A DNA stretch of 64,000 nt from Candidatus Omnitrophota bacterium (GCA_021735655.1 JAIPGM010000001.1:224001-288000); one strand, 5' to 3'; positions 2-27,194 are shown, counted from the first letter of the stretch. Made by a program: numbers and translations. Notes: a model not told the origin generated them from the sequence alone.

Positions 2-991
2 AAGCTAAACTTAGATAATCTGCATTCCCGGTTAACTTACCCGGCTAACTTAGCAAAAGAGCTGCTTAAGTTTAAGCCGGATAGTCAAATAGAGTCATTC
101 ATTCAGAGAGGTAAGCCTTATATTAGAGGGGCTTTGTCTTATAAATTACGCTACGATAGTTTGTATTGCCAATGGGCTAAATATCTTCTTAAACGTTTTC
201 CTCAGCCTGATTTTTTTGCCCTTTCTTTGCATGAAATACATTCCTTGTCACATCTTTTCTGGGATTGCCTGCCTCTGGCCAAGAAAAGATTTAAGGGCGC
301 GGTTCATCGGCGTCGACAAAAAAAGTATGGCGGGATAATTGAGGATTATTATCGTTACATTGATAAAAATATTGGCGAAGTATTGAAACTGAGCGATAGT
401 GATTCTACGGTTATGATTCTTTCTCACTACGGCATGGTCGATTCACGAATATTTAAGAAGTACATATTTATGGATAAAATTTATCATAAATTAAATTTTT
501 TCTTTTATGATGACGGTATTGATTGGGATCGAACCAGCGTGTATGATAATGTTAATCCTTGGGGTATATACGCTGTACGAAAGGGTTTTATCCGCGGACG
601 CAACCCCCAAAAAATATTTTTATCTTTAAGCAGGAAAATGAAAAAGATAATCACCAATAAAGGTGAGCCTTTGTTTTTGGATATATCATTTGAAAAACAA
701 GATAATTCATTTAAAGTAGTGCCGAATTACAAGGCCATAAACTATTCGACAAAGATATTAATCAAGGGCGAGGAGATACCAGTAAAGGAGTTAGTAGATT
801 TTAAACCGCATTATTCTATACATAATCCTGAAGGGGTTTTCATTGTCTCAAGTCGCAAGAGACAATCTTTAAAGGTTATCAAGGATAAAGTTGATTTTTT
901 GGACATTTTGCCTACGATTTTTTCCTTTTATGGGATAAAAAAAGATCCTAAAATGTCCGGTGAGGTATTTGTAGACAGAAAAAGGAGGTAA
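2..991 (+). CDS. Alkaline phosphatase superfamily protein (type I phosphodiesterase/sulfatase-like), C-terminal part; 5' end lies outside the window
   Basis: The reading frame is open from nt 2 to the stop at 989-991 with no in-frame stop upstream. The ORF track begins at a TTG at 134. The 'VMILSHYGMVD' segment resembles the conserved SDHG metal-site region of the alkaline phosphatase superfamily. Confidence 0.4.
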   Translation, partial: KLNLDNLHSRLTYPANLAKELLKFKPDSQIESFIQRGKPYIRGALSYKLRYDSLYCQWAKYLLKRFPQPDFFALSLHEIHSLSHLFWDCLPLAKKRFKGAVHRRRQKKYGGIIEDYYRYIDKNIGEVLKLSDSDSTVMILSHYGMVDSRIFKKYIFMDKIYHKLNFFFYDDGIDWDRTSVYDNVNPWGIYAVRKGFIRGRNPQKIFLSLSRKMKKIITNKGEPLFLDISFEKQDNSFKVVPNYKAINYSTKILIKGEEIPVKELVDFKPHYSIHNPEGVFIVSSRKRQSLKVIKDKVDFLDILPTIFSFYGIKKDPKMSGEVFVDRKRR

Positions 992-994
992 GTT

Positions 995-1288
995 ATGAAA
1001 GCCGACCAGTTAAAGGGCAAGTGCATGACTATTAACGAAGAAATTATTTCTTGGCGAGAGATCGACAAAGAGGTAGTATTTCTTAATAAACAGGAAAAAA
1101 GTTTTTACGAATTAAACAAAACAGCTGAGATCATTTGGCGCCAGTTAGCCAAAGGCGGTAAACTGACTCAGGTAATTTCTCAGGTTCAAAAGAAATATAA
1201 GAAAGTAGGTAAGCAAGACATAGAAAGAGATGTAATTGCTTTTATTGCAGATGGAATTAAGAAAAAAATATTTATTGTTAATAAATAA
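995..1288 (+). CDS. PqqD-family RiPP recognition element (peptide chaperone)
   Basis: 97 aa. The stretch 'FYELNKTAEIIWRQL...KKY...ERDVIAFI' matches the PqqD signature (LNxT..IW..L...Y...ErDv..F). AGGAGG lies 8 nt upstream of the ATG. The stop overlaps the next start as TAATG. Confidence 0.8.
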   Translation: MKADQLKGKCMTINEEIISWREIDKEVVFLNKQEKSFYELNKTAEIIWRQLAKGGKLTQVISQVQKKYKKVGKQDIERDVIAFIADGIKKKIFIVNK

Positions 1289-2442
1289 TGGCTAAGAAAA
1301 AACATTTTCTTCAAAATCCATTTTTTATTATCCAATGGCATATAACTGAACGCTGTAATTGGCAGTGTAAGCATTGCTATCAGGACAAGGCGCCGGTGCC
1401 TGAACTGCCTTTTGGCAAGCTAGAAGGGGTTCTTGGCCAATGTATGGAACTGTTTAAGACTCTAAACGTTCCCGCTAAGCAAGCTTACATGCATATAGGG
1501 GGAGGAGAGCCTTTCTTGCGGAAGGATTTTTTTAAATTCTTAAAGTTGCTGAGCGTGCATAATGATTATTTAAGAATTCAGATAATGACTAACGGCTCAT
1601 TACTTACGCAGTCGGTAGTTAAAGAATTAAAAAGAATGAAGGTGAACGCAGTGCAGGTTAGCTTAGAAGGATTTGAGCAAACTAATGATCAAATAAGAGG
1701 TCCGGGAAGTTTTAATAAGGCTTTGCGGGCTATAGAGTTGCTGATAAAGAACAAAATTTCCACCAGAGTTTCGCTTACCTTGACCAGGATGAATTTAAAC
1801 GAAATAGATGATTTAGCTGTGTATCTTAAAAGCCTCGGGGTCAGGTCTTTTGGAATCCGCAGATACTTTCCTGAAGGAGAAGGTGGGCAGCTGAAGGAGT
1901 TCATGCTTTCGCCTTTAGAAATGAAAGAGTATTATCTTAGGCGTGAGGCTTTGAAGAAAAAATTAGATGTACCGGGAAAATTTTGGGTTTCTAAAGTTTG
2001 TGAAGATGCATGCTATCTAAGCAGTCAGGATCAGTCTTGTCCAAGCTGCGGTATTACTAGAGGATGTCATCTAAATATTTTTACCAACGGCGACATTCTC
2101 GCCTGTAGGCGTTGTCCGATAGTAGTTGGTAATGTATTAAAGGATAGGTTGCTTGATGTTTACTTTTCTTCCGATACCTTGTGGGCTTTGCGGAATTTAG
2201 ATAATGTCAATCCAGAATGTAGGAAATGCACCTATTTCGATAGATGCCTCGGTGGTGCTAAGTGCGAGTCTTATTCTTATTTTAATAATCCATTTGCTCC
2301 TGATCCCCAATGTTTTAGGTTATTTACCGATCTCCCGGATCCACAGAGATATAATAGGCAGGCAGAGAAAATGGAAGTACAAAAGGTTAGTGCTTTTAAG
2401 GGAGAAAAAAAGTTTACGGATGAGATTGAAGATGTGATATAA
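1288..2442 (+). CDS. Radical SAM/SPASM-domain peptide-modifying enzyme
   Basis: CNWQCKHC is a CX3CX2C motif and a GGGEPFLR glycine-rich motif follows. The C-terminal half carries many extra Cys (CPSCGITRGC...CRRC...CRKCTYFDRCLGGAKC) typical of SPASM auxiliary clusters. It is translationally coupled to the PqqD-like gene. Confidence 0.85.
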   Translation: MAKKKHFLQNPFFIIQWHITERCNWQCKHCYQDKAPVPELPFGKLEGVLGQCMELFKTLNVPAKQAYMHIGGGEPFLRKDFFKFLKLLSVHNDYLRIQIMTNGSLLTQSVVKELKRMKVNAVQVSLEGFEQTNDQIRGPGSFNKALRAIELLIKNKISTRVSLTLTRMNLNEIDDLAVYLKSLGVRSFGIRRYFPEGEGGQLKEFMLSPLEMKEYYLRREALKKKLDVPGKFWVSKVCEDACYLSSQDQSCPSCGITRGCHLNIFTNGDILACRRCPIVVGNVLKDRLLDVYFSSDTLWALRNLDNVNPECRKCTYFDRCLGGAKCESYSYFNNPFAPDPQCFRLFTDLPDPQRYNRQAEKMEVQKVSAFKGEKKFTDEIEDVI

Positions 2443-2479
2443 TTATAGTGATAATATTATAGTAGACAGGAGATTAGCT

Positions 2480-2653
2480 ATGGTTAGCCATTCGAAAAAG
2501 AAAAAAGAGAAAAACCAAGACAAAATTGCCTCTTCAGTTGCTGCGTACGAAAAACCTAAGTTTAAAAAAATTAAACTGCTCGATCCCAAAGAGGCAGGCA
2601 TTGCCGGAACTACGGCTGGCTGCGGCTGCTGCGGTTGTTGCTGTTGTTGGTAA
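2480..2653 (+). CDS. Candidate RiPP precursor peptide (57 aa) with a Lys-rich leader and a Cys-rich C-terminal core
   Basis: Not in the ORF track (below 60 aa). AGGAG sits 8 nt upstream of the ATG at 2480. The translation is MVSHSKKKKEKNQDKIASSVAAYEKPKFKKIKLLDPKEAGIAGTTAGCGCCGCCCCW*. It lies directly downstream of the PqqD plus rSAM/SPASM pair. Confidence 0.6.
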   Translation: MVSHSKKKKEKNQDKIASSVAAYEKPKFKKIKLLDPKEAGIAGTTAGCGCCGCCCCW

Positions 2654-2668
2654 TTTTCTAACTTTTGT

Positions 2669-3559
2669 ATGAGTAAATACTACAATGTAGGTTACCCTCT
2701 TGCAGGAGATTGTCGTGGAGTTATCCAAATACGTACTAAAAGTAAATACCTGTGGGACCTCTTGTGTGGTAAATATGCTATGCTTTTTGGCCGTAAGGCC
2801 TTAAGTGGAAACAATGCTATCCGACGAGATTTTTTCATAGATTTTAATTTTATCTCTGATTATCAAGGTTTAGCCAAAAAAAACAAATCTAAATCTTTAG
2901 ATTTTTCTTGCCAGTTTGATAAAAAGTCAATAATTTATAACTTGGTTACCCCTAGGGGGTCCTCATTGGAAATAAACTATTTTAAGCGTTACGCCCAAGT
3001 GGGCTTGATTGAAAAAGATCCGATGATAACTTACTTTGTTGACAGGATGATTCTTTTTACCTATTCGTTAGCTAGAATGTTTATGGTCCATGGTGCTTGG
3101 GTAAAAAGAGGTAAATCTTCATTTTTTCTCATTGGTCGCAGTGGGGTAGGTAAAACAACCATAAGTTCTTTGTTAACCAATCAAAGTAAAGATTACAAAC
3201 TTATGGATGATGACAGTCCGTTTATTTTTCAGGCTGATGACACTTTGTTTGCTGCCTCCAGAGATCAGCGGCTAGTTGAATATTCACCAAATTATTTGTT
3301 TTTTATATCGAAGAAACCGCGCTTAAAGAGTGAAGCCTGCCCTTTAAGTTCTAAAGAGTCATTTAAGAGGTTAATTGAACACTCAGACGTAATTTTTAGA
3401 AAAAATGACCCGATGACCGATTATCGTTTGGATGTCTTAAGGAAATTGGCAATGCGTTGTAAATCATATCTATTGATTAACGGCAAAGATTTGATTGGTA
3501 GCAAAGTTTTGGCTTCTACTTTATTTAATGGTATTATCAAAAGGAGAAAAAATGCGTAG
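2669..3559 (+). CDS. HPr kinase-related P-loop kinase (HprK C-terminal-domain-like)
   Basis: 'HGAWVKRGKSSFFLIGRSGVGKTT' matches the HprK C-domain pattern hG..v...g.GvLi.G.SGvGKSe, which is a Walker A motif. Confidence 0.55.
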   Translation: MSKYYNVGYPLAGDCRGVIQIRTKSKYLWDLLCGKYAMLFGRKALSGNNAIRRDFFIDFNFISDYQGLAKKNKSKSLDFSCQFDKKSIIYNLVTPRGSSLEINYFKRYAQVGLIEKDPMITYFVDRMILFTYSLARMFMVHGAWVKRGKSSFFLIGRSGVGKTTISSLLTNQSKDYKLMDDDSPFIFQADDTLFAASRDQRLVEYSPNYLFFISKKPRLKSEACPLSSKESFKRLIEHSDVIFRKNDPMTDYRLDVLRKLAMRCKSYLLINGKDLIGSKVLASTLFNGIIKRRKNA

Positions 3560-4277
3560 TAAAATTATGTTTTATTTAGGGTTAGCGGTATTTAGTATGC
3601 TTGTTAATATAACAGTGTTCGGTGCAGATATTTCATATCAGGATTTGGTTCAGAGTGCTAAAGATAATTTTGCTTACCAGGTTTCAAATATAAAAAGTAT
3701 TGAGTATAAAGTAGTGGTTTCTGATATTGATGCTGAAACTATTTTATATATAGATGTTTGGGCGAAGTCCCCGGGGAGAGTTAAGGTGAAGCGTTTGGAT
3801 GTTCGTCCTGAGGCAAGCGATGATGGTGAATTCATTTTTGATAAAGGCAAAAGTTGGTCTAATTCTTCGATGGTTCCGGTAGAGATGTATATGGGGATGG
3901 TCGAGCAAGCTTTGTCTGGTGACCTAAGAGGTGGGGCGGTTCTAGAAGAGGAGAGCGGCCTAAGAGAAGTTTCTGGTACAACATATGCAGTAGCTACTTT
4001 ATTGTTTTTCGGAAAGTGTAAGGTAAAGGCATATTATAAGATACCTGATTCCCGCCGACCGGATAAATACGAAGTATTTTTGCTTCAGGGAGATAATTGG
4101 AACAAGTTAATGGATCTAAAACCACAGGATTACCAGGAGGTTGAAGGATCAGTATTTCCCCGCAGGACTGTCCAAACTCTTTATGAGCCCGAAGGCCAAG
4201 AGGAAAGGGTTATGGAGTTTTACAAAATAAAGGTTAATCAGGAAATAGATGACAGTATTTTTCAGATTCCTCAATAA
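3552..4277 (+). CDS. Exported hypothetical protein (N-terminal signal peptide)
   Basis: AAGGAG lies 5 nt upstream of the ATG at 3552. The N-terminus is MRSKIMFYLGLAVFSMLVNITVFGA. The ORF track gives a longer ORF from 3495. Confidence 0.5.
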   Translation: MRSKIMFYLGLAVFSMLVNITVFGADISYQDLVQSAKDNFAYQVSNIKSIEYKVVVSDIDAETILYIDVWAKSPGRVKVKRLDVRPEASDDGEFIFDKGKSWSNSSMVPVEMYMGMVEQALSGDLRGGAVLEEESGLREVSGTTYAVATLLFFGKCKVKAYYKIPDSRRPDKYEVFLLQGDNWNKLMDLKPQDYQEVEGSVFPRRTVQTLYEPEGQEERVMEFYKIKVNQEIDDSIFQIPQ

Positions 4278-4345
4278 ATTTTCTTAACTGCATAGATAGG
4301 ATTTTGTTTATAGCATTATCCTTTTTTTACGTCTTGCCTTTTAAA

Positions 4346-5149
4346 ATGAAGAAAAACTATACAGTATCATTTATCGAAAGCGACAGTATGTGGCCGGTCT
4401 TGAGGCCTTCAGATAAGGTATTGATTAAGGCAGTATCTTCTGCTTCGTTAAGAGTAGGAGATATTATTGTTTATCGGAAAAAAGAATTTTCGGTTGCCCA
4501 CCGGATTGTCCGAGTAGTTAATAATAAGGGGTTTTCCACTTATTGGACCAGAGGTGACTTTAATTATAAGCTCGATCAGGTTTCTACTGAAAATATAATT
4601 GGTAAAATAGCTGGAGTTTATCGTGATGGCCACCTAAAGCCAGTAAGAGGTCCTGGGTGCTGCTGGCTGTTTTTTATTGTGTTTTTAGGGAAAGAGGCTT
4701 CAACCAGGGTTTTGGAAGGAATATATTCTCTTGGGTTTTTTCGTAGTTGGATTAAAAGATTGTTTCCTTTAAAGGTTTCTTATGTCGTGGTGGGGGACAT
4801 AAAAAGCAATGATGATTTTAAAAGCTTTTATCATCGGTCATTTGATTCTTTATGTGAAGGTGGAACTCAGACAGGAATTATGGCTTTGTTTAAGGGTAAG
4901 CCCATAGGTAAACTTTGGATTTTAATTGACAAAGAAGGCAGCTTTTTTTTCTATGGTCCTTATGTAAGGTTGCTTTACCGTGTGAGGGGAGTTGCTGGAG
5001 GATTGATTAAGCAAGCTGTGTGCTATCTTGAAGGCTCTGGTTTAAAAAGGTCTAAAGTGTATGCTTTTACAGGAGGTAGCCGAATCCTGCTCAACTGCTT
5101 TAGCCGAGAGGAAATAGAAGCTAGAGGAGATTTTCCAGATAAACTTTAG
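4346..5149 (+). CDS. Signal peptidase I (S26)-like domain fused to a C-terminal GNAT-like domain
   Basis: 'SDSMWPVLRPSDKVLIK...GDIIVYRK...AHRIVRV' resembles the S26 SM(x)P...GD...KR(v) blocks. The C-terminal 'LLYRVRGVAGGLIKQAV' fits GNAT motif A (R/Q-x-x-G-x-G/A). The ORF track starts at a TTG at 4304. ATG 4346 is preferred. Confidence 0.5.
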   Translation: MKKNYTVSFIESDSMWPVLRPSDKVLIKAVSSASLRVGDIIVYRKKEFSVAHRIVRVVNNKGFSTYWTRGDFNYKLDQVSTENIIGKIAGVYRDGHLKPVRGPGCCWLFFIVFLGKEASTRVLEGIYSLGFFRSWIKRLFPLKVSYVVVGDIKSNDDFKSFYHRSFDSLCEGGTQTGIMALFKGKPIGKLWILIDKEGSFFFYGPYVRLLYRVRGVAGGLIKQAVCYLEGSGLKRSKVYAFTGGSRILLNCFSREEIEARGDFPDKL

Positions 5150-5160
5150 AAGAATTAAAA

Positions 5161-6594
5161 ATGGAACAATTTGACTGTGTTTTAATCCATCATTCCGGGC
5201 CGGGCCCTAATGCTAAGCATATTGCTCCTAATGTCTCGATGGGTGTATTTGCTTTGGCAGATATTTTGCAGAGAAACGGCTACAGGACTGAAATAATTCA
5301 TTTAGGCATAGAAGAATATCTTGATAATAGTTTTTCTTTGGCCAGATATTTAAGAGTTAAAAAGCCATTATTGGTTGGAGTTACTTTGCATTGGCATTTA
5401 CAATGCTCTAAAACCGTAGGCTTAGTTAGAAGTATAAAAAAAATAGTTCCTGGCGTTAAAGTTATTTTAGGAGGTTATACGGCAAGCTTTTTTGCCGATC
5501 AAATAATGCCTGAAGTTAAGGAAGTTGATTTTATTATTAGAGGTGATGCTGAGAAACCTCTGCTGGAGTTGATGCGACAGTTAAAAGACGGCCATTTTGA
5601 CTTAAGTTCTGTGCCGAATCTTACTTGGCGTAGAGCCAAAAAGGTAATACATAACAAGCAGAGTTATGTAGCAAAAAAGGAGGATCTTGATCAGTTAAAT
5701 TTCTCTAATTTTAAACTTATGAAAAATAGTCAGTTTTATTTAGGTTCATTAGCTAAAATTTACCAGTCAGTGCAGGATACAGAAACATACAATCTTCTTA
5801 AACTGAATCCTTTTTATCTTTCTGTTGGTCGAGGCTGTCGGTTTAATTGTCTGTTTTGCGGTGGATCGGCAATGGCGCAGAAATTAATTAACAACCGAAA
5901 TAATTTAGTTTTTCGTTCTTCCAAAAAAGTCATCTCTACCATTAAAGACGCTTTTCGAGAAGGAGTAGATACTTTTTGTATTTGTTTTGATCCTAATCTT
6001 GACAAATCTTATTATTTTGATTTATTTCAGTCTATCCGCAAAAATAGAATAAAAATTTCAATGATGTTTGATTGTTGGTCTTTGCCATCATTTGAGTTCA
6101 TTGATGCATTTGCTAAGACTTTTCAAGATGGAAAACATAGTAGCTTAGCCTTATCTCCAGAAACCGGTTCTGAGCGCTTACGAAAAAAGTATAAAGGTTC
6201 ATTCCATACTAACCAGGAATACTTTGAGGTATTTCGTTATTTACGGGCAAAAGGCATAAAATGTGTTGTGCAGTTTGGCTATATATTTCCGGGTGAAAGC
6301 ATGGTAGATTTTAAGAAGACTAGTGACTTCATTGAAACCACCAATGAAATTTTTAAAGGACGAGTGCTTGTAATTATAAATAAATGCGTGATTGACCCGG
6401 CTTCTTTGTTTTATATGTTTCCGAAAAAGTATAAAATAACCAGAAAAGCGGTTAGCTTCTCTGATTATTGTAGATTAGATCCCTGGAAGAGCTATTCTTT
6501 TTTTCCCGCCCAGCAAAAGAAAATGAAAGCTGTTTTAAAGATGTGGCAAAAGGTTGAGGCTCTTCAGTTATTGGATATTGCTGATCCGATCTGA
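5161..6594 (+). CDS. B12-binding-domain radical SAM enzyme (class B rSAM)
   Basis: The N-terminal region looks like a cobalamin-binding Rossmann domain (VKVILGGYTAS...DFIIRGDAE). This is followed by 'LSVGRGCRFNCLFCGG', which carries CX3CX2C. Confidence 0.8.
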   Translation: MEQFDCVLIHHSGPGPNAKHIAPNVSMGVFALADILQRNGYRTEIIHLGIEEYLDNSFSLARYLRVKKPLLVGVTLHWHLQCSKTVGLVRSIKKIVPGVKVILGGYTASFFADQIMPEVKEVDFIIRGDAEKPLLELMRQLKDGHFDLSSVPNLTWRRAKKVIHNKQSYVAKKEDLDQLNFSNFKLMKNSQFYLGSLAKIYQSVQDTETYNLLKLNPFYLSVGRGCRFNCLFCGGSAMAQKLINNRNNLVFRSSKKVISTIKDAFREGVDTFCICFDPNLDKSYYFDLFQSIRKNRIKISMMFDCWSLPSFEFIDAFAKTFQDGKHSSLALSPETGSERLRKKYKGSFHTNQEYFEVFRYLRAKGIKCVVQFGYIFPGESMVDFKKTSDFIETTNEIFKGRVLVIINKCVIDPASLFYMFPKKYKITRKAVSFSDYCRLDPWKSYSFFPAQQKKMKAVLKMWQKVEALQLLDIADPI

Positions 6595-6613
6595 CCGCGT
6601 TTTAAAGGCGCTT

Positions 6614-7774
6614 TTAAAAAATCATCTTGAAAATGTGTTTTATAAGTCTATAGGGTATATAGAAAATTCTTAGGTGGTATTTTCTAGCTGTTGTTACACA
6701 ACGTTGGGGCAGAGAATAATACTTAGCAAATTGTTCCTGTGGTACGGTTAAAATGTATTTTAAGGGGTAGCTTATGGTGTCGTAATAGATAAATTGACAG
6801 AGGGTGTAGATATAAGGTAGATTTTCCATTCTTACTGGGGTGTAGGTAAAGCGCTGCACGATAGAAGATATTAAATATTTTTGCCAACCAGGCACTTTAA
6901 GTTTTTTCAGGAAAAATTTAAGGTCGACATCCAAAACGAATTGCATTTGATATAATAGAAGGTAGAGGCTTGCTTTGGCTTTTTCTTGTTCAGCTGCCTT
7001 TAAGATATATTCCCAGTTAAGATTTTCCTCTTTTAGGATAATCCCCAAGTCACAAATGTATTTTAAATTAAGTATTTTTCCGAACCGTCGCTGATGTAAG
7101 GCAAGGCTTAGAATAGTGTCTTCGGCGCTTAAAGCTCTAAAGGAGTATCCTGGGCCTTGGATTAGGCGCAGGCGATTCCATGCATCAGGCAATACTTTTT
7201 GCTTAAAGCGATTGCAATCTAAAGCCCAGTGCAGTTCGACTAGTGTAGCTTGGCCATTAGTTTCTTTAGTGAAAGAGAGGTGACATTGGTGCTTTCGCCA
7301 GTAAGCTTCGTCAGATCCGAGAAATTCCTTTTTATAGCCCATGGCCAGAAGAAGAAAAGTTGCTTTTTCAAAGTTTTTTTCAGTGGTGAACAGGTCTATG
7401 TCTGATGAAGGACGTATCCCAAAATGCTTGTAGTATTTATCAGGCAAAGAAAAGCCCTTAATCGGAATAATTAGGGTATCGGATTTTTCCGCTTCTTTGA
7501 GTATATTTGATAATTCAATACATAGATTTTCATGGTTAAAAATTTTTAAGCAATAAAACTTTTTATAAAGTTGTTCAAAGCCTTTCGGTATCGGGTATGA
7601 ATTTTCTTTAAGTATAACCTGAAGAAAGTGAGGTAGCTCATGGTAAAAAATAGCATAACCTAGGTTTTTTCCGTGTATGTTTTCTGCTTTGAGGCTTTTT
7701 AGGAGTAGATCACGTTGGTTTCCATAGACTATTTCCTTCGCTAGGTATTTGATTATTTTTTCTTCAGTTTTCAT
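6614..7774 (-). CDS. Nucleotidyltransferase-fold protein (NTP_transf_5/PF14907-like)
   Basis: 'GFSLPDKYYKHFGIRPSSDIDLFT' fits the nucleotidyltransferase motif hG[GS]...DhDh. The start was chosen at CAT 7772-7774 (MKTEEKII...) to avoid an 86-nt overlap. The ORF track extends it to 7882. Confidence 0.5.
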   Translation of the reverse strand: MKTEEKIIKYLAKEIVYGNQRDLLLKSLKAENIHGKNLGYAIFYHELPHFLQVILKENSYPIPKGFEQLYKKFYCLKIFNHENLCIELSNILKEAEKSDTLIIPIKGFSLPDKYYKHFGIRPSSDIDLFTTEKNFEKATFLLLAMGYKKEFLGSDEAYWRKHQCHLSFTKETNGQATLVELHWALDCNRFKQKVLPDAWNRLRLIQGPGYSFRALSAEDTILSLALHQRRFGKILNLKYICDLGIILKEENLNWEYILKAAEQEKAKASLYLLLYQMQFVLDVDLKFFLKKLKVPGWQKYLISSIVQRFTYTPVRMENLPYIYTLCQFIYYDTISYPLKYILTVPQEQFAKYYSLPQRCVTTARKYHLRIFYIPYRLIKHIFKMIF

Positions 7775-7796
7775 CTTGTAGTAATTAAACTTAGTA

Positions 7797-8843
7797 TTAT
7801 AAAAATAAAGGATAAATGGTTTTGCCCGGGCATTCTTCCGGACAGGATTTTCCTTTACGAAAGGTCCGGTATTTTTCTCCATACCATATATCCTTAAAAG
7901 ATAACTTATTTATATTTCCGAGTGATTTTTTTTCGGCATAAACACAACCTAAGACTTCACCTTCTAAAGTTATAACTGATTGAACCCAAGACAGATAGCA
8001 GGGTTTTTGTTTAGTCTGGCTTTGAATTTTCTGAGGTATTTTGTTACCACTGGCAAAATTTAAGAAACTTTTAATATTGTTGGGAATTTTTATCTTACTG
8101 GAAATGCTTGAGATTTTTTCCACGAATTCTTCCTGCTCAGACTCCGGAGGAATAAGTCTTTTATTTAGTTCCGGAGTCATAAGTAGAGGTTTAAACAGCA
8201 GCTTATCTGCCGATAATTTCTGGCTAAGAGCGATCATCTCGGCAGCATTGTGGTAATTAAGATTAGATATTACGTTTACCAGAAACAAGAGAGGGTATCG
8301 TTTTTTGCCTTTTAGGGACTTTATCAGGAAGAGATTGTTTAATAAAGTATTGAAATCTTTTTTGTTTCTGGAGGGCCTGATCCTTTGGAAAGTTTCAGCA
8401 TCCGCGCAATGAAGACTTACCAGAATTTTTTTTACACCCTTTTCTATTAGCTTGGCTATATTAGTTTTATCAAGATAAAAGGCATTGGTCATTAGCTCAA
8501 CATTGATTTTTTGCTCACCGGCTATGCTTATAAGTTTAAACAGATCGGGATGCATTAGTGGTTCACCTTCTCCGGTAAATAAAATAGTGTTTACCTGAAG
8601 GGTTTTTAATTGCTTAACCAGGGCAGAAAATGTATCACAGGAGATATGCTGATCCGGTTTTTTTTTGGATATCGCCCCTGAATGATACCAACACATTTCG
8701 CAAGCCATGTCGCATTTATTGGTTATATCAAGAGTTATCTTAAGCGGTCCGGTAAAAGCTCTGCTTCGGGAAAGTATTCCTAGGAGGCGGAGCATATTGT
8801 GAGAATTTGAAAGATAGTGTAGATTGTTTTTTAACGAAAACAT
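7797..8843 (-). CDS. Radical SAM/SPASM enzyme, family B paralog
   Basis: 'ITLDITNKCDMACEMCWY' carries CX3CX2C and a GEGEPLMH motif follows. The C-terminus has a SPASM-like pattern (KPCYLS...GEVLGCVYAE...GNINKLSFKDIWYG...CPEECPG). An alternative start at 8795 (MLRLLG) matches the paralog N-termini. Confidence 0.8.
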   Translation of the reverse strand: MFSLKNNLHYLSNSHNMLRLLGILSRSRAFTGPLKITLDITNKCDMACEMCWYHSGAISKKKPDQHISCDTFSALVKQLKTLQVNTILFTGEGEPLMHPDLFKLISIAGEQKINVELMTNAFYLDKTNIAKLIEKGVKKILVSLHCADAETFQRIRPSRNKKDFNTLLNNLFLIKSLKGKKRYPLLFLVNVISNLNYHNAAEMIALSQKLSADKLLFKPLLMTPELNKRLIPPESEQEEFVEKISSISSKIKIPNNIKSFLNFASGNKIPQKIQSQTKQKPCYLSWVQSVITLEGEVLGCVYAEKKSLGNINKLSFKDIWYGEKYRTFRKGKSCPEECPGKTIYPLFL

Positions 8844-9059: not shown

Positions 9060-9911
9060 ATGAGCAAACCTTTATTATCGGTGATTATCCCAGCTTTTAA
9101 CGCCGAAATTTACATTGAAAAATGTTTGCAACCATTGATTAAGAATCTGTCTGATGGTTTAGAAGTAATTGTTGTCGATAATGGGTCAGTTGATAAAACA
9201 GCAGCTATTGTAACTGAGGGATACCCTCAGGTAACTTTGTTGAAAAATCAGGAAAATCTCGGTGCTTGTAGGGCTAGGAATCAAGCTATCGAAGTCTCAT
9301 CTGGAGAATGGGTTTTGACTCTTGATTGTGATGTGGTTTTGGAAGATGACTTTATTTTAAAAGTATCTCAGTTGATAGATGATCTGCCGTCTGATCGTAT
9401 TGGAATAATCCAGCCAAAAATATTGCAAGCTGACAAAAAAACTATTGATTCCTGTGGAATCCATCTTTCCTGGTTGAGGAGATTCTATGATCTTGGGAAG
9501 GGGAAAACTGACTCCGGCCAATTCAATGAATCTATCTATGTTTTCGGCGCCTGCTCAGCCTGCGCTCTTTATCGGCGGACGATGCTTGAGGATTTAAAAG
9601 AAAGTGGAGAATACTTTGATCAAAAGTTCTTTTTTTTAGTGGAAGATGTGGACTTGGCCTGGCGAGCAAATAATAGGCAGTGGCAATCATTCTTTTTTCC
9701 TTTTATTTCTTGTTGTCATATCGGAAAAAGTTCAGGTTTTCCTAAGAAATTCCGGCAGTATCTTTGTTTTCGCAATCGCTACTACACAATAGCTAAAAAC
9801 GAGGGGTTGGGTAGGTATGCCGGAAAAATTTTACCTGTGATTATATATGATTTTCCTAGGTTGGTTTATTTGGCTTTAACTAATAAATATTTCTGGACTA
9901 GAAAATTGTGA
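9060..9911 (+). CDS. Glycosyltransferase family 2
   Basis: 'LSVIIPAFNAE...VIVVDNGSVDKT' is the GT2 nucleotide-sugar-binding signature. A DxD-like 'LDCDVV' and a 'GACSACALYRR' block are present. Confidence 0.8.
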   Translation: MSKPLLSVIIPAFNAEIYIEKCLQPLIKNLSDGLEVIVVDNGSVDKTAAIVTEGYPQVTLLKNQENLGACRARNQAIEVSSGEWVLTLDCDVVLEDDFILKVSQLIDDLPSDRIGIIQPKILQADKKTIDSCGIHLSWLRRFYDLGKGKTDSGQFNESIYVFGACSACALYRRTMLEDLKESGEYFDQKFFFLVEDVDLAWRANNRQWQSFFFPFISCCHIGKSSGFPKKFRQYLCFRNRYYTIAKNEGLGRYAGKILPVIIYDFPRLVYLALTNKYFWTRKL

Positions 9912-11407
9912 AAACCGAAAACGGAATTACAAACCGGCGTGATTTTTGGATAAAGATTTCTCTGTTCTTTTTTGCTCTTTTTCTGCTTAGGGTATATGGT
10001 CTTAGCCGGCATGAGTTTTGGTATGATGAAATATACTCGGTTGATTTTGCCCGTTCTCCCTTGCTCAGTTGGAACGCCCCTCTTTATTGGATTATTATTC
10101 ATTTTTGGTCAAAGTTATTTGGTTTGTCTGAATTCAGCCTGCGTTTTCCTTCTGCTATTTTTAGTCTGGCTACTTGCGTAGGGACCTATGTTTTGGGAAA
10201 GATGATATTTAGCCGGAGGATCGGGCTTTTGTCAGCTTTGATCATTGGCTTGTCACCTTTCCACCTCTGGTATGCTCAGGAAGCCAGGAATTACAGCCTG
10301 GTAACTTTTTTGGGAATATTTTCTTCTTATTTATTTTTTCGGGCTCTTAATGAGAGAAAAACAATATTTTGGGTTTACTTTGTAGTAATTTCTTTGCTTG
10401 GCGTGTACACAAACTACTTTTATTTGTTTTTGTTGTTTTTTCAAGGGGTCTATTTTGTTTGCTTCCGGGGGGTCAGATTCAAGCTTAAAGAAATATGGCC
10501 TTTTTTAATAGTTCTTGCCGGATTTATGTTTTATTTTCCGGGATTTATCAGTAAGTTTGCTTTTGTAAAATTAGGTTTTTGGGTGCCTAAGCCAGAGCTT
10601 GGGGCACTACTTATTAGTTTTGAGAATTTTCTTTTGGGTTATAGCGGAAACAGATTTTTTTATCTAGTGGCTAGTTTAATAACTTTAGTTTGTATTGGTG
10701 CGTTATTATATAAAGTAATAAAGGATAAGGCTATTTGCCAGGGGGTATTTTTTTGTTTTTGTTTATCGTTTGCTCCGATATTATTGATATTTTTGTTTTC
10801 CAGTATTTTTTTCTCAATTTATTTAGATCGGGGCCTGATGTTGTTCAGTCCTTATTTTTATATTCTTCTTTCTTTGGGATTGTTTTATTTGGTTCGACGC
10901 TGGAGAATCATTGTTTTTATTTCTCTTGTTTTTTTACAGATAGTTGCTATTTTCGGATTTTATCAGGATCGGATGTATCCGCCGCTTAAGCATCATATCG
11001 GAACTTATCTTAAAAAACCGGTTAAACCGGCCATAACTTTTCTTGAGGACAATGTCCGAGAGGGTGATATTGTTGCTTATACTAATCCTTCGGCCATACG
11101 TTCTATGGAATATTATAGCCAGCGGAGATTAGCTGATTTTTATATGTTTTTTGATCCGAGCTTGTCGGAATCATCTTGGCAAAGGCCTATCCAGGAAACA
11201 GCCACTATAGTTCCATATAATAAAATAAGAGGCTTACCTGCTGAACGTATTTGGGTTATTTTTAATGATTGGGGTAGAACCGGTGGCTTGGATGAACATT
11301 CAAAAATAGTAAAGGATTGGATGGATGAAAATCTTACCTTGAAAACTTCCCGGGAATTTGATGGCTTGTGGGTATTGGAGTATACAAAGAAAGTCATTAG
11401 CCCATAG
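9908..11407 (+). CDS. GT-C membrane glycosyltransferase (ArnT/PMT, GT39/GT83-like)
   Basis: It has about 10 or more transmembrane segments. 'RHEFWYDEIYSVDFA' is the periplasmic DE-loop motif of the PMT_2 family. The GTG start overlaps the upstream stop. Confidence 0.65.
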   Translation: MKTENGITNRRDFWIKISLFFFALFLLRVYGLSRHEFWYDEIYSVDFARSPLLSWNAPLYWIIIHFWSKLFGLSEFSLRFPSAIFSLATCVGTYVLGKMIFSRRIGLLSALIIGLSPFHLWYAQEARNYSLVTFLGIFSSYLFFRALNERKTIFWVYFVVISLLGVYTNYFYLFLLFFQGVYFVCFRGVRFKLKEIWPFLIVLAGFMFYFPGFISKFAFVKLGFWVPKPELGALLISFENFLLGYSGNRFFYLVASLITLVCIGALLYKVIKDKAICQGVFFCFCLSFAPILLIFLFSSIFFSIYLDRGLMLFSPYFYILLSLGLFYLVRRWRIIVFISLVFLQIVAIFGFYQDRMYPPLKHHIGTYLKKPVKPAITFLEDNVREGDIVAYTNPSAIRSMEYYSQRRLADFYMFFDPSLSESSWQRPIQETATIVPYNKIRGLPAERIWVIFNDWGRTGGLDEHSKIVKDWMDENLTLKTSREFDGLWVLEYTKKVISP

Positions 11408-17452: not shown

Positions 17453-18748
17453 ATGAAGGATTACAATAAGGAGTCTCTTTTTACTGCAGCTGGAAAGTTT
17501 ATTTTTGGCACAGGTATCATCTTTTTACTGCTTTTTTTATTTTATCAGAAGTCATTAATTCTGTCTTTAGATCCTAATCCAAATTTGTCTGAAATTACAG
17601 TTGAGAAAATAAAACTTACCAGGCTTTATTTATTATCGATATCTTTGGTGTTGATTTTCATATCAGGGGCAGCAAAGATGTTGCCGGTTTTTAACCGTTA
17701 TATAAATCGAATAATGGCAATTAAACCAGTGCGGTATTTTTTGTTGATAATGCTGCCGATAGTTATTTTCGAACTATACTTTCAACCTTTAGCTTTGCAA
17801 AAACCGACAATTTTAATGCGGGATGATGATTTAATCTGGAAATTACGGCCAAATAGCGAATCTATATGGGCTGAAGCGATAGTAAAGATAAATTCCAAAG
17901 GCTTAAGGGGTCCCGAGTTAGATTACGCTAAACCGGCTGATACAAAAAGAATCCTTTATTTGGGCGATTCTATAACTTTTGGTTTTAGCTTGAAAAGCTA
18001 CGATCAAACATTTCCCTGTCAGGTTGAGGAAATTTTAGAGGAAGATAATAATAGAAAAGTTGAAACAATAAATGCCGGTGTGGGCGGTTATTCTCCCTGG
18101 CAGGAATATATCTATTTATCAAAAGAAGGTATTAACTATGATCCGGATTTAGTTGTAGTCGCTTTTACCTTAACCGATGTTAGTGAGAAGCTTGGCTTGA
18201 GACGATTCGGCGGCGACAGCGAAGGGGCTCAGCTGGCAGCTTCGGCTATTACGATATTTGATTGGTTAAGTAACAAAAGCCGCATTTTATATTTCATAAA
18301 GGAGGCGGTTACTAACCTAAGATTCAACGGCGATATTGAAAAAATGGTACCGGTTGAAGAAGGGCTTAAAATTACCCAGCTAATAGATGAAGCAAACGAT
18401 CCGGACATTAAAAATGCATGGGAGATTACCTTAAATAATCTTGGTAAAATATTCGATTTTTGTAAAAGTGGAAATGTCCCGGTAATATTAGTTATTTTTC
18501 CGGTAGCGTCTCAATTTGATGATGTTGAGAACATGTCAGGGCCACAACTTTTTGTGAGCAGGTTTGCTAGTAAAAAAAATGTTCTGTCATTGGACTTGCT
18601 GCCTTTGTTATCTCAGAGAGTCAAAAATAAAAAAGTAGACCTAGAAGATTATTTTTTGGGTCCACTTCACTTATCAGCTGAGGGAAATAAGGTAGTTGCT
18701 GAATTAATAGCTGACTTTATTAAGGAAAGTAATATTTTATATTTTTGA
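17453..18748 (+). CDS. Membrane-anchored SGNH/GDSL hydrolase-fold protein (DltD/AlgX-like)
   Basis: An N-terminal transmembrane helix is present. The GDS block is 'ILYLGDSITFGF', the Gly block is 'NAGVGGYS', and the C-terminal region has a DxxH-like motif. Confidence 0.6.
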   Translation: MKDYNKESLFTAAGKFIFGTGIIFLLLFLFYQKSLILSLDPNPNLSEITVEKIKLTRLYLLSISLVLIFISGAAKMLPVFNRYINRIMAIKPVRYFLLIMLPIVIFELYFQPLALQKPTILMRDDDLIWKLRPNSESIWAEAIVKINSKGLRGPELDYAKPADTKRILYLGDSITFGFSLKSYDQTFPCQVEEILEEDNNRKVETINAGVGGYSPWQEYIYLSKEGINYDPDLVVVAFTLTDVSEKLGLRRFGGDSEGAQLAASAITIFDWLSNKSRILYFIKEAVTNLRFNGDIEKMVPVEEGLKITQLIDEANDPDIKNAWEITLNNLGKIFDFCKSGNVPVILVIFPVASQFDDVENMSGPQLFVSRFASKKNVLSLDLLPLLSQRVKNKKVDLEDYFLGPLHLSAEGNKVVAELIADFIKESNILYF

Positions 18749-19620
18749 CTTTTATCAAAATGAGTAAAACCTTAAATATTGAAGATTTGGATAGGGCTGT
18801 ACTTAGGAAATTGGAAACTCTGCAGAGTATTTTTTCTGATATGGGAAGTGCTTTAATAGCCTATTCCGGAGGTGTAGATAGCACGCTTTTAACCAAGGTG
18901 GCCAAGGATGTTCTAAAAAGTAAGGCGGTTGCTGTGACTTCAGAGTCAGAAACTTATCCTTTACGGGAATCAAGGCAGGCTAAGGAATTGGCAAGGCAGC
19001 TGGGAATAAGGCATATTATTATTAATACCCGTGAACTAGATAATGAAGAGTTTTCTAAAAATTCACCTCAAAGATGTTATTTTTGCAAAAAAGAATTGTT
19101 TTCCAGACTTTTGGATTTAGCAAAACAGCATAGTTTAGATTATGTTGTTGAGGGCTCAAATCACGACGATCGGTCTGATTATCGGCCGGGCCTAAAGGCA
19201 ATAGAGGAACTAGGCATAAGAAGTCCTTTAAAAGAAGCCGAGCTAACCAAGAAAGAAATCAGAATACTTTCGAAGATGTTCGGTTTAAGCTCTTGGAATA
19301 AACCGTCTTTTGCCTGCCTATCTTCAAGATTCCCTTACGGAACTAAAATAACCAAAGATGGATTAATAAAGGTTGATCGGGCTGAGGGGGTGTTGCTTAA
19401 ATTTGGCTTTAGCCAGTTAAGAGTAAGAATACATGGGCCAATAGCAAGGATAGAGGTTCCCAAGGAAGATATTTCTTTATTTTTTAAGGCTGGTTTGTCA
19501 GACAGAGTTGTTGAAGAATTTAAAAAAATCGGTTTTTTCTATGTAACTTTAGATTTGGCAGGTTATGAAACTGGCAGTATGAATAAGCTGCTTAAGAGCG
19601 AGGATAAATTTGGATACTAA
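18745..19620 (+). CDS. larE: LarE-family ATP-dependent sulfur transferase (PP-loop)
   Basis: 'ALIAYSGGVDSTLL' is the PP-loop motif. Conserved Cys are present (CYFCKKELF, CLSSRFPYG). It sits directly upstream of larB and larC homologs. Confidence 0.75.
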   Translation: MTFIKMSKTLNIEDLDRAVLRKLETLQSIFSDMGSALIAYSGGVDSTLLTKVAKDVLKSKAVAVTSESETYPLRESRQAKELARQLGIRHIIINTRELDNEEFSKNSPQRCYFCKKELFSRLLDLAKQHSLDYVVEGSNHDDRSDYRPGLKAIEELGIRSPLKEAELTKKEIRILSKMFGLSSWNKPSFACLSSRFPYGTKITKDGLIKVDRAEGVLLKFGFSQLRVRIHGPIARIEVPKEDISLFFKAGLSDRVVEEFKKIGFFYVTLDLAGYETGSMNKLLKSEDKFGY

Positions 19621-25259: not shown

Positions 25260-27194
25260 ATGATTAAGTTTTTATATCAGGAAATGTACCAGCGCAGAAA
25301 TATTATCGCAATTTTAGTCATTATGCTTATTGTCGGAATGTTCTATTTTCCGACGATAAAGGATATCGATTCTACAATTATAAGCGAGGATGACTGGTTT
25401 GGTTTTTATTACTATGCGGGCATATCAAGATTAACAGCCTTGAAATATCATCAGTTGCCGTTGCGTACTCCTTATCTAGGCGGAGGGTACCCTTCGATTG
25501 CTCACCCTTTCGATTATACCCTAAGCCCTTTTTTCTTTTTTATTTTATTGTTTGGGGAAGTAGCAGGATTAAGGTTGATGGTGTACTTTATTTTTATGTT
25601 TGGTTCTTTGGGGATGTTTTACTTTACTAGATATGTTTTGAAATACAATCTCATGGGAGCTATTTTCTCTTGCTTGACTTTTTCTCTCTGCAGTTGGGGG
25701 GCTTTTGAGGTAGTTGACGGAAATATCCCTAAGATATTTTGTTATCTTTTGCCTTGGCTATTTGCTTTTTTGCTGCAATCTAAAAAAGATAAGCGATTCT
25801 TAATCCTTGCTTGTTTAGTTTTGAGTCCGATTCTGACCCTATCTGGTTTATCTTTTATCCCGGTAGTGCTGGCTTTGTTTTTATTAGCCTGCTTTTATGC
25901 CGTCAGTATAAATAAGGGGTTTAAGTTTAAAATCAGAGGATCGTATATAGCTTTTTTTCTGGCCATAATAATCGGAACCTGTCTTTTATTTGCTATTAAA
26001 GTCATTCCGATGTTTGAACTTTATAAAATGCGCACAGAGTATATTCATTTGCCATACGAGAATTCTTATTCTGCGATTTCCCGAGCCACTAAGGCCTTTG
26101 GCGCTTGTTTGGATATGGAATTACTTAAAAAGTCCTTGTTGGATAAGAGCTTTCGTGGATATTCAACAATGTATTTAGGGTATCTTCCACTCGTTTTTAT
26201 GTTTTTATCGATTTTAATCTATGCAAAAAAAAATATGCGCTACATATTGCTTCTGATCGTATTTGCCCTCATTCAGTTTGGATCGAGAAGTCCCCTGGAT
26301 TTATTTAAGATATTTTGGCAGATTCATCCGTCAGTTCATGGGATATGGAGGCTTAATAAATATTTTGGTTTTTTTATTCCCTTTTTTATTTCTATAATTG
26401 CCGGGAGGTTTTTCTTAATTTTTAGACATAAAAAGATAATTAAACCGCTGGTATTTATAATCATCGGGATTAGTGCATATCATATGTATTCGAATAATAG
26501 ATTGATTTTTAGTCCTATGGTTTACGAAAGAAAGCCGTCTTTGGAGGTGTATGATTCGTTTTTTCCGGTTGAGATAGAAAACACTACCATAGAAAGAGCT
26601 TGGCCGGGATTTCATGAGGTTAAAGACATACGGTCCTATCAGCCTTTTTGGTTGCTGTTACGTCAAAATATAGGAGTGGTGAATTTTAATTGGTCGGGGA
26701 ATTTAAACCTTTCTCAATACGCTCAGCCTAAATATATACTTCCTACTGGTAAACAGGTAGGAGAAATTGTCTATGTCCGTGGTTACGAACAGTTATCCCA
26801 AGATATAAATGTACCAATTGATTTAATGACTGTAGCAAGGGACAACCCTCATTATCAAGGAGAAGTATTTTTTTTGAAAAAAAACAACAAGGTGGACTCG
26901 ACATATCTTAGTCCTAATATAGTAAAAGCTGATGTTAGTCTTAGAAGTCCTGATCGGCTTATTATAAATCAGAATTACCACAAGAGTTGGACAGTGGACA
27001 AGGGCAAGCTGATAAATCACAAAGGCTTGCTGGCAGTTGAGCTTGTAGATCAAGGTGTTCATCAGGTGACATTTAGATATGTTCCTCTAGATTTTTATTT
27101 AGGCGCGATTGTAAGTTTTTTTACACTTATAGGTATGTTGGCTTACTTTTGGTTCGTGCCTGGGAAAAAAATTAGTTTCAATAAAGCTAAATAA
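25260..27194 (+). CDS. Large polytopic membrane protein, YfhO-like (tandem paralog 1)
   Basis: 644 aa with many transmembrane helices. The C-terminus is '…FRYVPLDFYLGAIVSFFTLIG…'. Confidence 0.45.
   Translation: MIKFLYQEMYQRRNIIAILVIMLIVGMFYFPTIKDIDSTIISEDDWFGFYYYAGISRLTALKYHQLPLRTPYLGGGYPSIAHPFDYTLSPFFFFILLFGEVAGLRLMVYFIFMFGSLGMFYFTRYVLKYNLMGAIFSCLTFSLCSWGAFEVVDGNIPKIFCYLLPWLFAFLLQSKKDKRFLILACLVLSPILTLSGLSFIPVVLALFLLACFYAVSINKGFKFKIRGSYIAFFLAIIIGTCLLFAIKVIPMFELYKMRTEYIHLPYENSYSAISRATKAFGACLDMELLKKSLLDKSFRGYSTMYLGYLPLVFMFLSILIYAKKNMRYILLLIVFALIQFGSRSPLDLFKIFWQIHPSVHGIWRLNKYFGFFIPFFISIIAGRFFLIFRHKKIIKPLVFIIIGISAYHMYSNNRLIFSPMVYERKPSLEVYDSFFPVEIENTTIERAWPGFHEVKDIRSYQPFWLLLRQNIGVVNFNWSGNLNLSQYAQPKYILPTGKQVGEIVYVRGYEQLSQDINVPIDLMTVARDNPHYQGEVFFLKKNNKVDSTYLSPNIVKADVSLRSPDRLIINQNYHKSWTVDKGKLINHKGLLAVELVDQGVHQVTFRYVPLDFYLGAIVSFFTLIGMLAYFWFVPGKKISFNKAK

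Follow-up and report, generated by a model that had tools for sequence, protein, structure and literature searches.

A gene cassette at the left end of a 64,000-nucleotide stretch of a Candidatus Omnitrophota bacterium genome (GCA_021735655.1, JAIPGM010000001.1:224001-288000; this whole stretch is referred to here as the window) probably makes a ribosomally synthesised peptide with post-translational modifications (RiPP) of an undescribed family. Judging from sequence, we put the probability of this at roughly 0.65, with the 57-residue product of positions 2480-2653 as the substrate. The evidence that carries this reading comes from a comparison of gene neighbourhoods, for which we used members of the cassette's kinase family and relatives of one of its radical S-adenosylmethionine (radical SAM, rSAM) enzymes, rSAM1, on independent metagenome and metagenome-assembled genome (MAG) contigs (loci designated here by L numbers). 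In these relatives the precursor, an HprK-like kinase, a PqqD-family chaperone, rSAM1, a fusion of an S26 peptidase with a GNAT acetyltransferase (S26-GNAT), a nucleotidyltransferase and a second radical SAM enzyme, rSAM2, recur together at 25-60% identity. Its recurrence on such independent contigs shows that the arrangement is not a product of chance.

The precursor open reading frame (ORF; 2480-2653, plus strand, K9L86_00375) encodes MVSHSKKKKEKNQDKIASSVAAYEKPKFKKIKLLDPKEAGIAGTTAGCGCCGCCCCW, is preceded by an AGGAG box 8 nucleotides 5' of its start, and is present in the window as a single copy. It belongs to a family of small peptides with a common leader design, consisting of a Lys-rich N-terminus, the motif Y-E-K-P-x-x-K-x-[IV], about ten further residues, G-x-A/G, a Ser or Thr, and a Cys-rich tail whose last residue is frequently Trp or Tyr; across 15 related peptides Y23 and P26 are invariant and K25 is nearly so. 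The conserved G-x-A of the window peptide is Gly40-Ile41-Ala42, and the core that follows it, GTTAGCGCCGCCCCW, holds three Gly-Cys motifs and no acidic residue and ends in CCCCW, while the precursor of locus L034 ends in ...GSCASCGSACSSGGCSCGCGGACACSSSW. In nearly every core the first Cys is preceded by a Ser or Thr. Each of the 15 other loci examined that contain the kinase (16 with the window) encodes a precursor of this family, directly 5' of the kinase gene in most and with one rSAM gene between the two in L008, L014, L022 and L023.

Searches with these peptides point to a family that is small and closely tied to the kinase. A profile of the 15 peptides matched once in each of the 15 other kinase-containing loci and found no match (E>0.6) in 14 loci that have an rSAM1 orthologue and no kinase; likewise, no precursors were found beside rSAM1 orthologues in loci from the candidate phyla radiation (CPR) and DPANN archaea. 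A profile search of 5.8 billion proteins yielded only 8 members of the precursor family, and the nine family peptides that were scanned gave no NCBIfam match at E<=10, the ACGX and SCIFF models included. The only close relative of the window precursor, in L001, is 95% identical, with three amino-acid changes that all fall in the N-terminal leader; the core differs at three codons, each time by a synonymous change. This copy, together with the start of a kinase gene, lies on an ENA metagenome contig (ZHEN22, 1-1574). Gene association marks the precursor and the kinase as the tightest pair in the cassette.

Several related loci carry much of the remaining gene set. L010 encodes homologues of PqqD (41% identity to the window protein), rSAM1 (56%), the kinase (32%), S26-GNAT (33%), the nucleotidyltransferase (47%) and rSAM2 (46%). 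L013 has the same genes at 43%, 60%, 31%, 38%, 49% and 48%, respectively, and also the exported protein described below, and L014 has them at 32% (PqqD), 45% and 49% (two copies of rSAM1), 34% (kinase), 27% (S26-GNAT), 41% (nucleotidyltransferase) and 36% (rSAM2). L002 keeps the window order of precursor, kinase, exported protein, S26-GNAT, nucleotidyltransferase and rSAM2. L015 and L018 hold most of the gene set, and in L015 the PqqD gene is followed directly by the nucleotidyltransferase gene on the same strand. L034 (GCA_020047475.1, JAHZTK010000170.1, 7319-15394), whose kinase is about 25% identical to that of the window, has a PqqD, an rSAM1 orthologue and a precursor; it also encodes a 788-residue YcaO-ThiF fusion, an ABC-2 transporter and three PMT_2 proteins. 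The cassette is rare and confined to uncultured lineages.

The initial annotation of this locus had listed its ORFs, assigned their domains and grouped them as a RiPP-like cassette. Each ORF was found where it had been placed, the N-termini of homologues confirm the shorter starts chosen there, 7774 for the nucleotidyltransferase and 3552 for the exported protein, and profile searches reproduced all of the domain calls, those for the kinase and the GNAT domain only by way of relatives or a structure model. These searches did not move the kinase, the nucleotidyltransferase or the S26 domain into unrelated housekeeping families; the kinase family is small (68 relatives), its examined members adjoin a precursor gene, and the cassette genes are co-conserved with the PqqD/rSAM pair in other genomes. 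The absence of an Asn-synthetase-type cyclase, a B2 protease and an ABC transporter, also claimed there, holds across 1-14.3 kb. Catalytic motifs are intact in the S26 domain, the nucleotidyltransferase and all three radical SAM enzymes of the cassette. Promoter and terminator scans did no better than chance.

The kinase (2669-3559, plus strand, K9L86_00380) was identified through an alignment of its relatives and a structure model. Its gene and that of the precursor belong to a 341-kb contig of a Candidatus Omnitrophica MAG. On its own, the window protein matched TIGR04352 at E=0.004, with 16.2 bits against a cutoff of 200, and a word-seeded homologue search retrieved only the query itself; a locus search with 10 kinase sequences found none in genomes and three short metagenome contigs. 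A full HMMER scan of 1.8 billion representative sequences extended the family to 68 relatives with E<=0.001. Of these, 33 reach E<=1e-10, and identities within the top 30 span 29-40%. When 29 members were aligned, H141, G156, G161 and K162 did not vary and D182 was almost invariant, which corresponds to the His / GxSGxGK[TS] / DD signature of HPr kinase. Curated matches among these 29 members were to HprK_rel_A (TIGR04352; 14 members), HPr(Ser) kinase (7), phosphoenolpyruvate carboxykinase (PEPCK; 6) and ScmC (5), and the best match of any family member to TIGR04352, at E=4e-9, was still under the cutoff. With the 29-sequence alignment AlphaFold gave a model with a predicted local distance difference test (pLDDT) score of 90.1, compared with 32 from the single sequence; Foldseek ranked ATP-PEPCK first (1e-8) and then HprK/P (2e-5) for this model. 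The family profile found mostly generic P-loop matches among PDB sequences, and HprK/P at 4e-4. The signature in the alignment, the curated matches of the relatives and the AlphaFold/Foldseek result together indicate that the HprK-related call is correct at the level of fold and active site: as aligned and modelled, the protein belongs to the superfamily of HprK/PEPCK-fold P-loop kinases and lies outside every curated HprK subfamily.

Upstream of the precursor, the stop codon of the gene for the PqqD-family peptide chaperone (a RiPP recognition element, RRE; 995-1288, plus strand; PF05402, 4e-11) overlaps the start codon of the gene for rSAM1, a radical SAM/SPASM protein and the presumed core-modifying enzyme (1288-2442, plus strand; PF04055, 9e-24). 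The best NCBIfam matches of PqqD are to lasso peptide models, both under cutoff (NF033530, 43.5 bits against 70; NF033536, 34.9 against 80). It has orthologues at 29-48% identity in L007, L010, L013-L015 and L018, adjoining rSAM1 in L010, L013, L014 and L018. The CxxxCxxC motif of rSAM1 is formed by C23, C27 and C30, and the protein aligns over its full length to SPASM-family NCBIfam models, with the highest bit scores (cutoffs in parentheses) for ACGX TIGR04340 at 168.9 (400), SbtM TIGR04082 at 133.8 (350), GeoRSP at 130 and MftC at 120 (265).

Orthologues of rSAM1 reach 45-60% identity in the kinase-type loci and 36-43% in MAGs of Paceibacterota, Nealsonbacteria, Saccharibacteria, Aenigmatarchaeota, Iainarchaeum and Aerophobetes. 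Since such orthologues occur in loci that lack PqqD, kinase and precursor, the rSAM1 subfamily is not specific to this peptide, and the comparison flags an rSAM/SPASM clade shared with CPR bacteria and DPANN archaea. In the longer CPR, DPANN and Aerophobetes loci the rSAM1 orthologue is one of an array of radical SAM genes, about five to ten in number and mostly encoding proteins of about 300 residues.

The S26-GNAT fusion (4346-5149, plus strand) is the presumed leader peptidase and N-acetyltransferase of the cassette. Its N-terminal part scores 67.6 bits against TIGR02228 (cutoff 51.85) and contains SMWP (Ser) at residue 14, AHRI (His) at residue 51 and RGD at residue 69, so that both the model score and the catalytic Ser/His boxes place it with archaeal/SipW-type signal peptidase I (S26). 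No membrane anchor was detected in it, with 19-residue windows at or below a Kyte-Doolittle (KD) value of 1.34, and this is as atypical for S26 as is the C-terminal GNAT domain. The GNAT assignment depends on relatives, since the window protein gives 15.8 bits against PF00583 (cutoff 20.7) and its L002 orthologue, which also matches PF13508, gives 27.4; an R-x-x-G-x-A/G-like motif, RVRGVAG, is present at residue 212. Orthologues of the fusion occur in L002, L010, L013, L014 and L015. A further relative, L022 (Candidatus Omnitrophota MAG JAFGET010000038.1, 1216-4616), has the precursor, rSAM1, the kinase and two PqqD genes, and there a lasso B2 protease (NF033537, 48.3 bits against a cutoff of 33) occupies the position of S26-GNAT, a substitution that lends support to the S26 domain being a leader peptidase. 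The L022 contig stops too early to exclude a cyclase.

Between the kinase and S26-GNAT lies the gene for an exported protein (3552-4277, plus strand) with an N-terminal signal sequence (hydrophobic N-terminus, 19-residue KD value 2.12) and a weakly LolA-like C-terminus (PF17131, E=0.0013, under cutoff). Homologues directly follow the kinase in L002, L008 and L013, and the L002 copy has a lipobox-like VVGC.

After S26-GNAT comes a B12-binding radical SAM protein (B12-rSAM; 5161-6594, plus strand), whose best NCBIfam match is TIGR04190 with 192 bits against a cutoff of 500. Its identification in the initial annotation stands (PF02310 and PF04055), but its place as a core member of the cassette does not: there is no B12-rSAM between S26-GNAT and the nucleotidyltransferase in L002, and relatives carry other methylase types, so we treat it as accessory. 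Among the fetched loci, L016 and L033, neither of which has a kinase, hold the homologues nearest to it. Just 5' of the precursor, a class-I SAM methyltransferase is encoded in L008 (802-3905), L010 (8255-9841), L013 (11102-12718) and L002 (43-981); this protein has 528-538 residues, or 312 where it is truncated in L002, and by eye its C-terminus resembles a PqqD/RRE domain. L008 additionally has a HemN-like rSAM (PF06969). Because the B12-rSAM is not conserved and the relatives carry different methylase types, C-methylation would be an optional tailoring step, and methylation seems, from these gene contents, to be a recurrent modification made by interchangeable enzymes.

The last two genes of the cassette are read from the minus strand as one operon and encode the nucleotidyltransferase-fold protein (6614-7774) and rSAM2 (7797-8843; radical SAM/SPASM, PF04055 and PF13186). 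The former belongs to PF14907 (NTP_transf_5) both by score, at 105.1 bits against a gathering cutoff of 31.2, and by its acidic metal-binding motif, SSDIDLF at residue 123. It has orthologues at 32-49% identity in L002, L010, L013, L014, L015 and L018, and those of rSAM2, in L002, L010, L013 and L014, are 36-48% identical. The best NCBIfam match of rSAM2 is TIGR04317 with 124 bits, followed by MoaA (76), viperin (60) and BlsE (52). In L034 the orthologues of the two proteins are fused in a single protein of 762 residues, and for this reason we consider the pair to form one functional unit; a fusion of this kind predicts radical chemistry on a group attached to a phosphate.

The cassette is probably wider than the initial annotation had drawn it. 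The genes within 995-8843 are as proposed, whereas neither boundary holds. On the left, a protein of the phosphodiesterase type I/alkaline-phosphatase superfamily (2-991, plus strand; PF01663, 5e-08), a possible accessory member, is cut by the window's edge: its frame is open from base 2, so the cassette is truncated on this side, and it aligns to a 465-residue L010 homologue from residue 154 of the latter at 44-46% identity. Among the related loci this gene lies beside the cassette only in L010; next to a kinase and a nucleotidyltransferase, its product may process the phosphate adduct. On the right, the cassette probably reaches as far as the co-conserved pair at 9060-11407, a GT2 glycosyltransferase (9060-9911, plus strand; PF00535, 5e-29) and a PMT_2 (GT-C fold) membrane glycosyltransferase (9908-11407, plus strand; PF13231, 3e-14), both of which are probable members of the conserved neighbourhood. 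GT2 homologues with 35-42% identity occur in L013, L015 and L018, and GT2 genes are also found in L002 and L034; NCBIfam matches of the window GT2, under cutoff, include MftF (58.7 bits, cutoff 280) and SunS (36.2 bits). PMT_2 orthologues (34-36% identity) adjoin the nucleotidyltransferase or rSAM2 in L013, L014 and L018, and L002, L013 and L034 carry GT2, PMT_2, Wzy_C or GT4 genes as well.

Further to the right (14572-59220) the window is occupied by a long island of glycan/envelope type, nearly all on the plus strand, bringing the window totals to 13 radical SAM, 4 PMT_2 and 5 GT2 genes. The island also encodes MBOAT, three GDSL, polysaccharide deacetylase, YdjC, DegT aminotransferase, GT4 and LPG_synthase_TM proteins. 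Five rSAM paralogues of about 325 residues (32570, 37487, 38474, 51078 and 52039) share 35-46% mutual identity; the small rSAM paralogues of the window were considered as orthologues of the rSAM arrays in the CPR/DPANN loci and are not close to them. The segment 18745-22760 encodes a LarE-like PP-loop protein, a LarB-like AIR-carboxylase, the Ni-insertion protein LarC and, after these, a DUF362 protein, and this looks like a set for nickel-pincer cofactor biosynthesis within the island. Two tandem ORFs of 644 residues each (25260-29128) have no Pfam match at E<=1e-4.

Taken together, these assignments allow a pathway to be proposed. PqqD would bind the leader through its Y-x-K-P motif, as a strand, and present the core to rSAM1, which may oxidatively modify core Cys residues; the product could be an SbtM-like thiooxazole at Gly-Cys, a candidate because SbtM is the second-best curated relative of rSAM1, or a thioether of the sacti/ranthi type. 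The HprK-fold kinase would then phosphorylate a hydroxyl, likely that of the Ser or Thr preceding the first Cys, and the nucleotidyltransferase and rSAM2 might decorate the phosphate, by analogy with the PsmK/PsmN pair discussed below. The B12-rSAM could add an optional methyl group. The soluble S26 domain would cleave after Gly40-Ile41-Ala42, in keeping with the -3/-1 rule for signal peptidases, and the fused GNAT domain might acetylate the N-terminus thus exposed. The product could finally meet the exported LolA-like protein and possibly the GT2 and PMT_2 glycosyltransferases.

Several observations weigh against reading the cassette as the pathway for a RiPP of its own. Every enzymatic step above is assigned by family resemblance, and rSAM1 is far under the cutoff of all curated families. 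Its orthologues in L016-L021 and L024-L033, loci from MAGs of CPR, DPANN and Aerophobetes, have no detectable PqqD, kinase or YEKP precursor beside them. The cores differ in length and in Cys number, from 1 to 10 or more; since the L013 precursor, with the ending ...GAAGVSSCY, has a single Cys, a multi-Cys scaffold is dispensable. Lasso kinases target a C-terminal Ser, which the peptides of this family lack. The homology of L001 starts at window base 2438, and upstream of this point it has a primase/Toprim-like ORF and an 80-residue ORF, not rSAM1, a break that could have arisen by insertion of a mobile element, by rearrangement or through a chimeric assembly. No exporter is present in the first 14 kb of the window, and with a glycan-gene island holding 13 radical SAM genes around the cassette, some neighbours may serve another pathway.

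This last point leads to the idea that two modules have come to lie side by side by accident, with only the precursor, PqqD, rSAM1, the kinase and perhaps S26-GNAT engaged in peptide production, and the convergent nucleotidyltransferase-rSAM2 operon, the B12-rSAM, GT2 and PMT_2 serving the glycan or envelope and acting on sugars or lipids. The glycan character of the window (13 rSAM, 4 PMT_2 and 5 GT2 genes) would fit, as would the single operon that joins nucleotidyltransferase, rSAM2 and PMT_2 in L013, the resemblance of rSAM2 to the nucleotide/sugar enzymes MoaA, viperin and BlsE, and the failure of the B12-rSAM to be conserved with the cassette. We nevertheless think such an accident improbable: in eight independent loci, L034 among them, the kinase and precursor are joined by the nucleotidyltransferase, whether or not rSAM2 is present; in L015 the nucleotidyltransferase follows PqqD directly on the same strand; and an HprK-type kinase with an NTP-transferase-type protein is documented as a peptide-tailoring pair (PMC6993621). 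A different proposal keeps the same biosynthetic logic and changes the product, from the secreted antibiotic type to a peptide that binds metals in the producer's physiology or a cofactor derived from a peptide, along the lines of bufferins, methanobactin or mycofactocin. Cores that are rich in Cys and Gly with Gly-Cys repeats speak for it, as do the thiooxazoles made by SbtM-type chemistry (PMC9204691), the matches of rSAM1 and GT2, under cutoff, to MftC and MftF, and the lack of an immunity or exporter gene nearby; two reports (PMC12668002, PMC11626156) describe thiooxazole peptides as metallophores. On the other hand, a single Cys (L013) or two (L015) would be poor for chelation, the loci showed neither metal-transport nor redox-partner genes, and the similarities to mycofactocin and SbtM are all far under cutoff, so that we regard this as rather unlikely, if worth keeping in mind.

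Two further explanations carry very little weight in our judgement. The cassette might be a degenerate or atypical lasso cluster with its cyclase outside the region examined, as the lasso B1 chaperone models matched by PqqD, the kinase-nucleotidyltransferase pair typical of lasso clusters and the true B2 protease of L022 would suggest. We consider this highly improbable: there is no Asn-synthetase-type cyclase within 1-14 kb, the sole PP-loop protein of the window (18745-19620) is a neighbour of LarB and LarC homologues, the long loci L010, L013, L014, L015 and L018 showed no cyclase, and the cores are Cys-rich, unlike lasso peptides, that of the window offering no Asp or Glu for a macrolactam. 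It is equally hard to credit that the small ORF is an unmodified Cys-rich mini-protein or spurious, with the enzymes acting elsewhere. The nine peptides that were scanned indeed match no curated family, but across all 15 other kinase loci the leader motif, position and orientation are kept and only the cores diverge, the ORF has a Shine-Dalgarno box, core changes relative to L001 are synonymous only, and the ORF is linked to a PqqD peptide chaperone; we therefore rejected a spurious ORF as an account of the precursor.

Returning to a RiPP of an undescribed family, a more specific and more speculative version can be put forward, which we would at present rather doubt than endorse. It holds that the cassette represents a new RiPP class assembled from the lasso accessory set of PqqD, HprK-fold kinase and PF14907 transferase without the cyclase, in which a Cys-rich core is modified by a SPASM rSAM and phosphorylated and the phosphate is elaborated by the nucleotidyltransferase-rSAM unit; the product, tied to PMT_2 and GT2, might be glycosylated outside the cell or might prime or anchor the assembly of envelope glycans in Omnitrophota and in uncultured lineages related to them. 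If the proposal of an undescribed family is true, it defines RiPPs from phyla in which producers have yet to be cultured and hardly any natural products are known; these RiPPs would come with a precursor signature that can be recognised (a Y-E-K-P leader, G-x-A and a core rich in Ser/Thr and Cys) and with roughly a dozen gene sets for heterologous expression. It would make testable the roles of HprK-fold kinases and PF14907 transferases outside lasso peptides, as well as the question of why such cassettes reside in glycan loci, and the soluble S26-GNAT protein would be a possible new solution to leader removal, interchangeable with the lasso B2 protease.

When compared with described systems, the cassette fits no named RiPP class, in agreement with the initial annotation: tests for lasso peptides, the characterised sacti/ranthipeptide enzyme families (PapB), ACGX, SynChlorMet, HPr-rel-A and mycofactocin failed, and rSAM1 scores below the SbtM cutoff. 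The companion statement that there is no known RiPP core enzyme holds only in this sense, as the combination of PqqD with a SPASM rSAM is itself a familiar type of RiPP core. Our searches of a literature library found no description of this gene combination, and neither SynChlorMet nor ACGX occurred in the papers that they listed. For sacti/ranthipeptide families rSAM scores were far below threshold (PapB NF047865, 67 bits against 340; StsB NF045574, 73 against 625). Mycofactocin membership fails on MftC and MftF, both under cutoff, and on a precursor that ends in CCCCW, not GVY.

The top two curated relatives of rSAM1, from the ACGX system (TIGR04340/TIGR04341) and SbtM, each pair a SPASM rSAM with a small Cys peptide, but both are defined without a kinase, nucleotidyltransferase or S26-GNAT, and rSAM1 is well under their cutoffs. 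Specifically, rSAM1 falls below that of TIGR04340 and none of nine precursors is a TIGR04341 peptide. SbtM acts at a Gly-Cys motif by thiooxazole chemistry (PMC9204691); the window core shares this target motif, of which it has three, although the enzyme itself is no member of TIGR04082. SynChlorMet, a bioinformatically defined and uncharacterised cassette of ScmC, the PqqD-like ScmD and the rSAM/SPASM proteins ScmE and ScmF, has the same skeleton, with ScmC as the protein to which five kinase-family members are weakly similar, but in the window the scores remain far from membership (ScmE 105 bits against a cutoff of 400, ScmF 85 against 400, ScmD 21.6 against 100, and no match to ScmC). To our knowledge, its definition includes no nucleotidyltransferase, S26-GNAT or Cys-rich YEKP precursor. 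HPr-rel-A (TIGR04352 with a PqqD-family chaperone) shares the commonest curated match of the kinase family; however, the window kinase is under cutoff, the PqqD model of that system is not among the window PqqD matches, and the system is defined without radical SAM enzymes or a recognisable Cys-rich precursor. Like the window cassette, the HPr-rel-A system also occurs near polysaccharide loci.

Phosphorylated lasso peptides such as paeninodin and pseudomycoidin offer the remaining comparison. In pseudomycoidin the HprK-family kinase PsmK is needed to phosphorylate the C-terminal Ser, and hexose addition to the phosphorylated peptide depends on PsmN, whose annotation is that of an uncharacterised NTP transferase (PMC6993621). 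The PsmK precedent bears out the statement in the initial annotation that HPr-kinase-like enzymes of some lasso clusters phosphorylate the peptide C-terminus, and its link of PqqD, an HprK-related kinase and a nucleotidyltransferase to lasso accessory sets is supported by the PsmK/PsmN pair (PMC6993621) and by the B2 protease in the relative L022. Both the lasso clusters and the window have an HprK-fold kinase, a nucleotidyltransferase-fold protein and a PqqD near a small precursor, and PsmN is a putative PF14907 member. The window differs in having no Asn-synthetase-type cyclase, acidic acceptor or C-terminal Ser. A PF00733-type lasso cyclase was not found within 1-14.3 kb of the window, and none was seen in L010, L013, L014, L015 and L018; a weak PF00733 match at 18745-19620 (the LarE-like PP-loop protein) was rejected as a candidate, since it adjoins LarB and LarC homologues. 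A transglutaminase-like B2 leader protease is likewise missing from the window and occurs only in the distant relative L022, and the window core has no acceptor Asp or Glu at position 7-9. In place of these components the window has radical SAM enzymes and an S26-GNAT protein presumed to remove the leader. The cassette works most like a hybrid, in which an rSAM/SPASM-PqqD RiPP pathway would be joined to the kinase-transferase tailoring module of phosphorylated lasso peptides.

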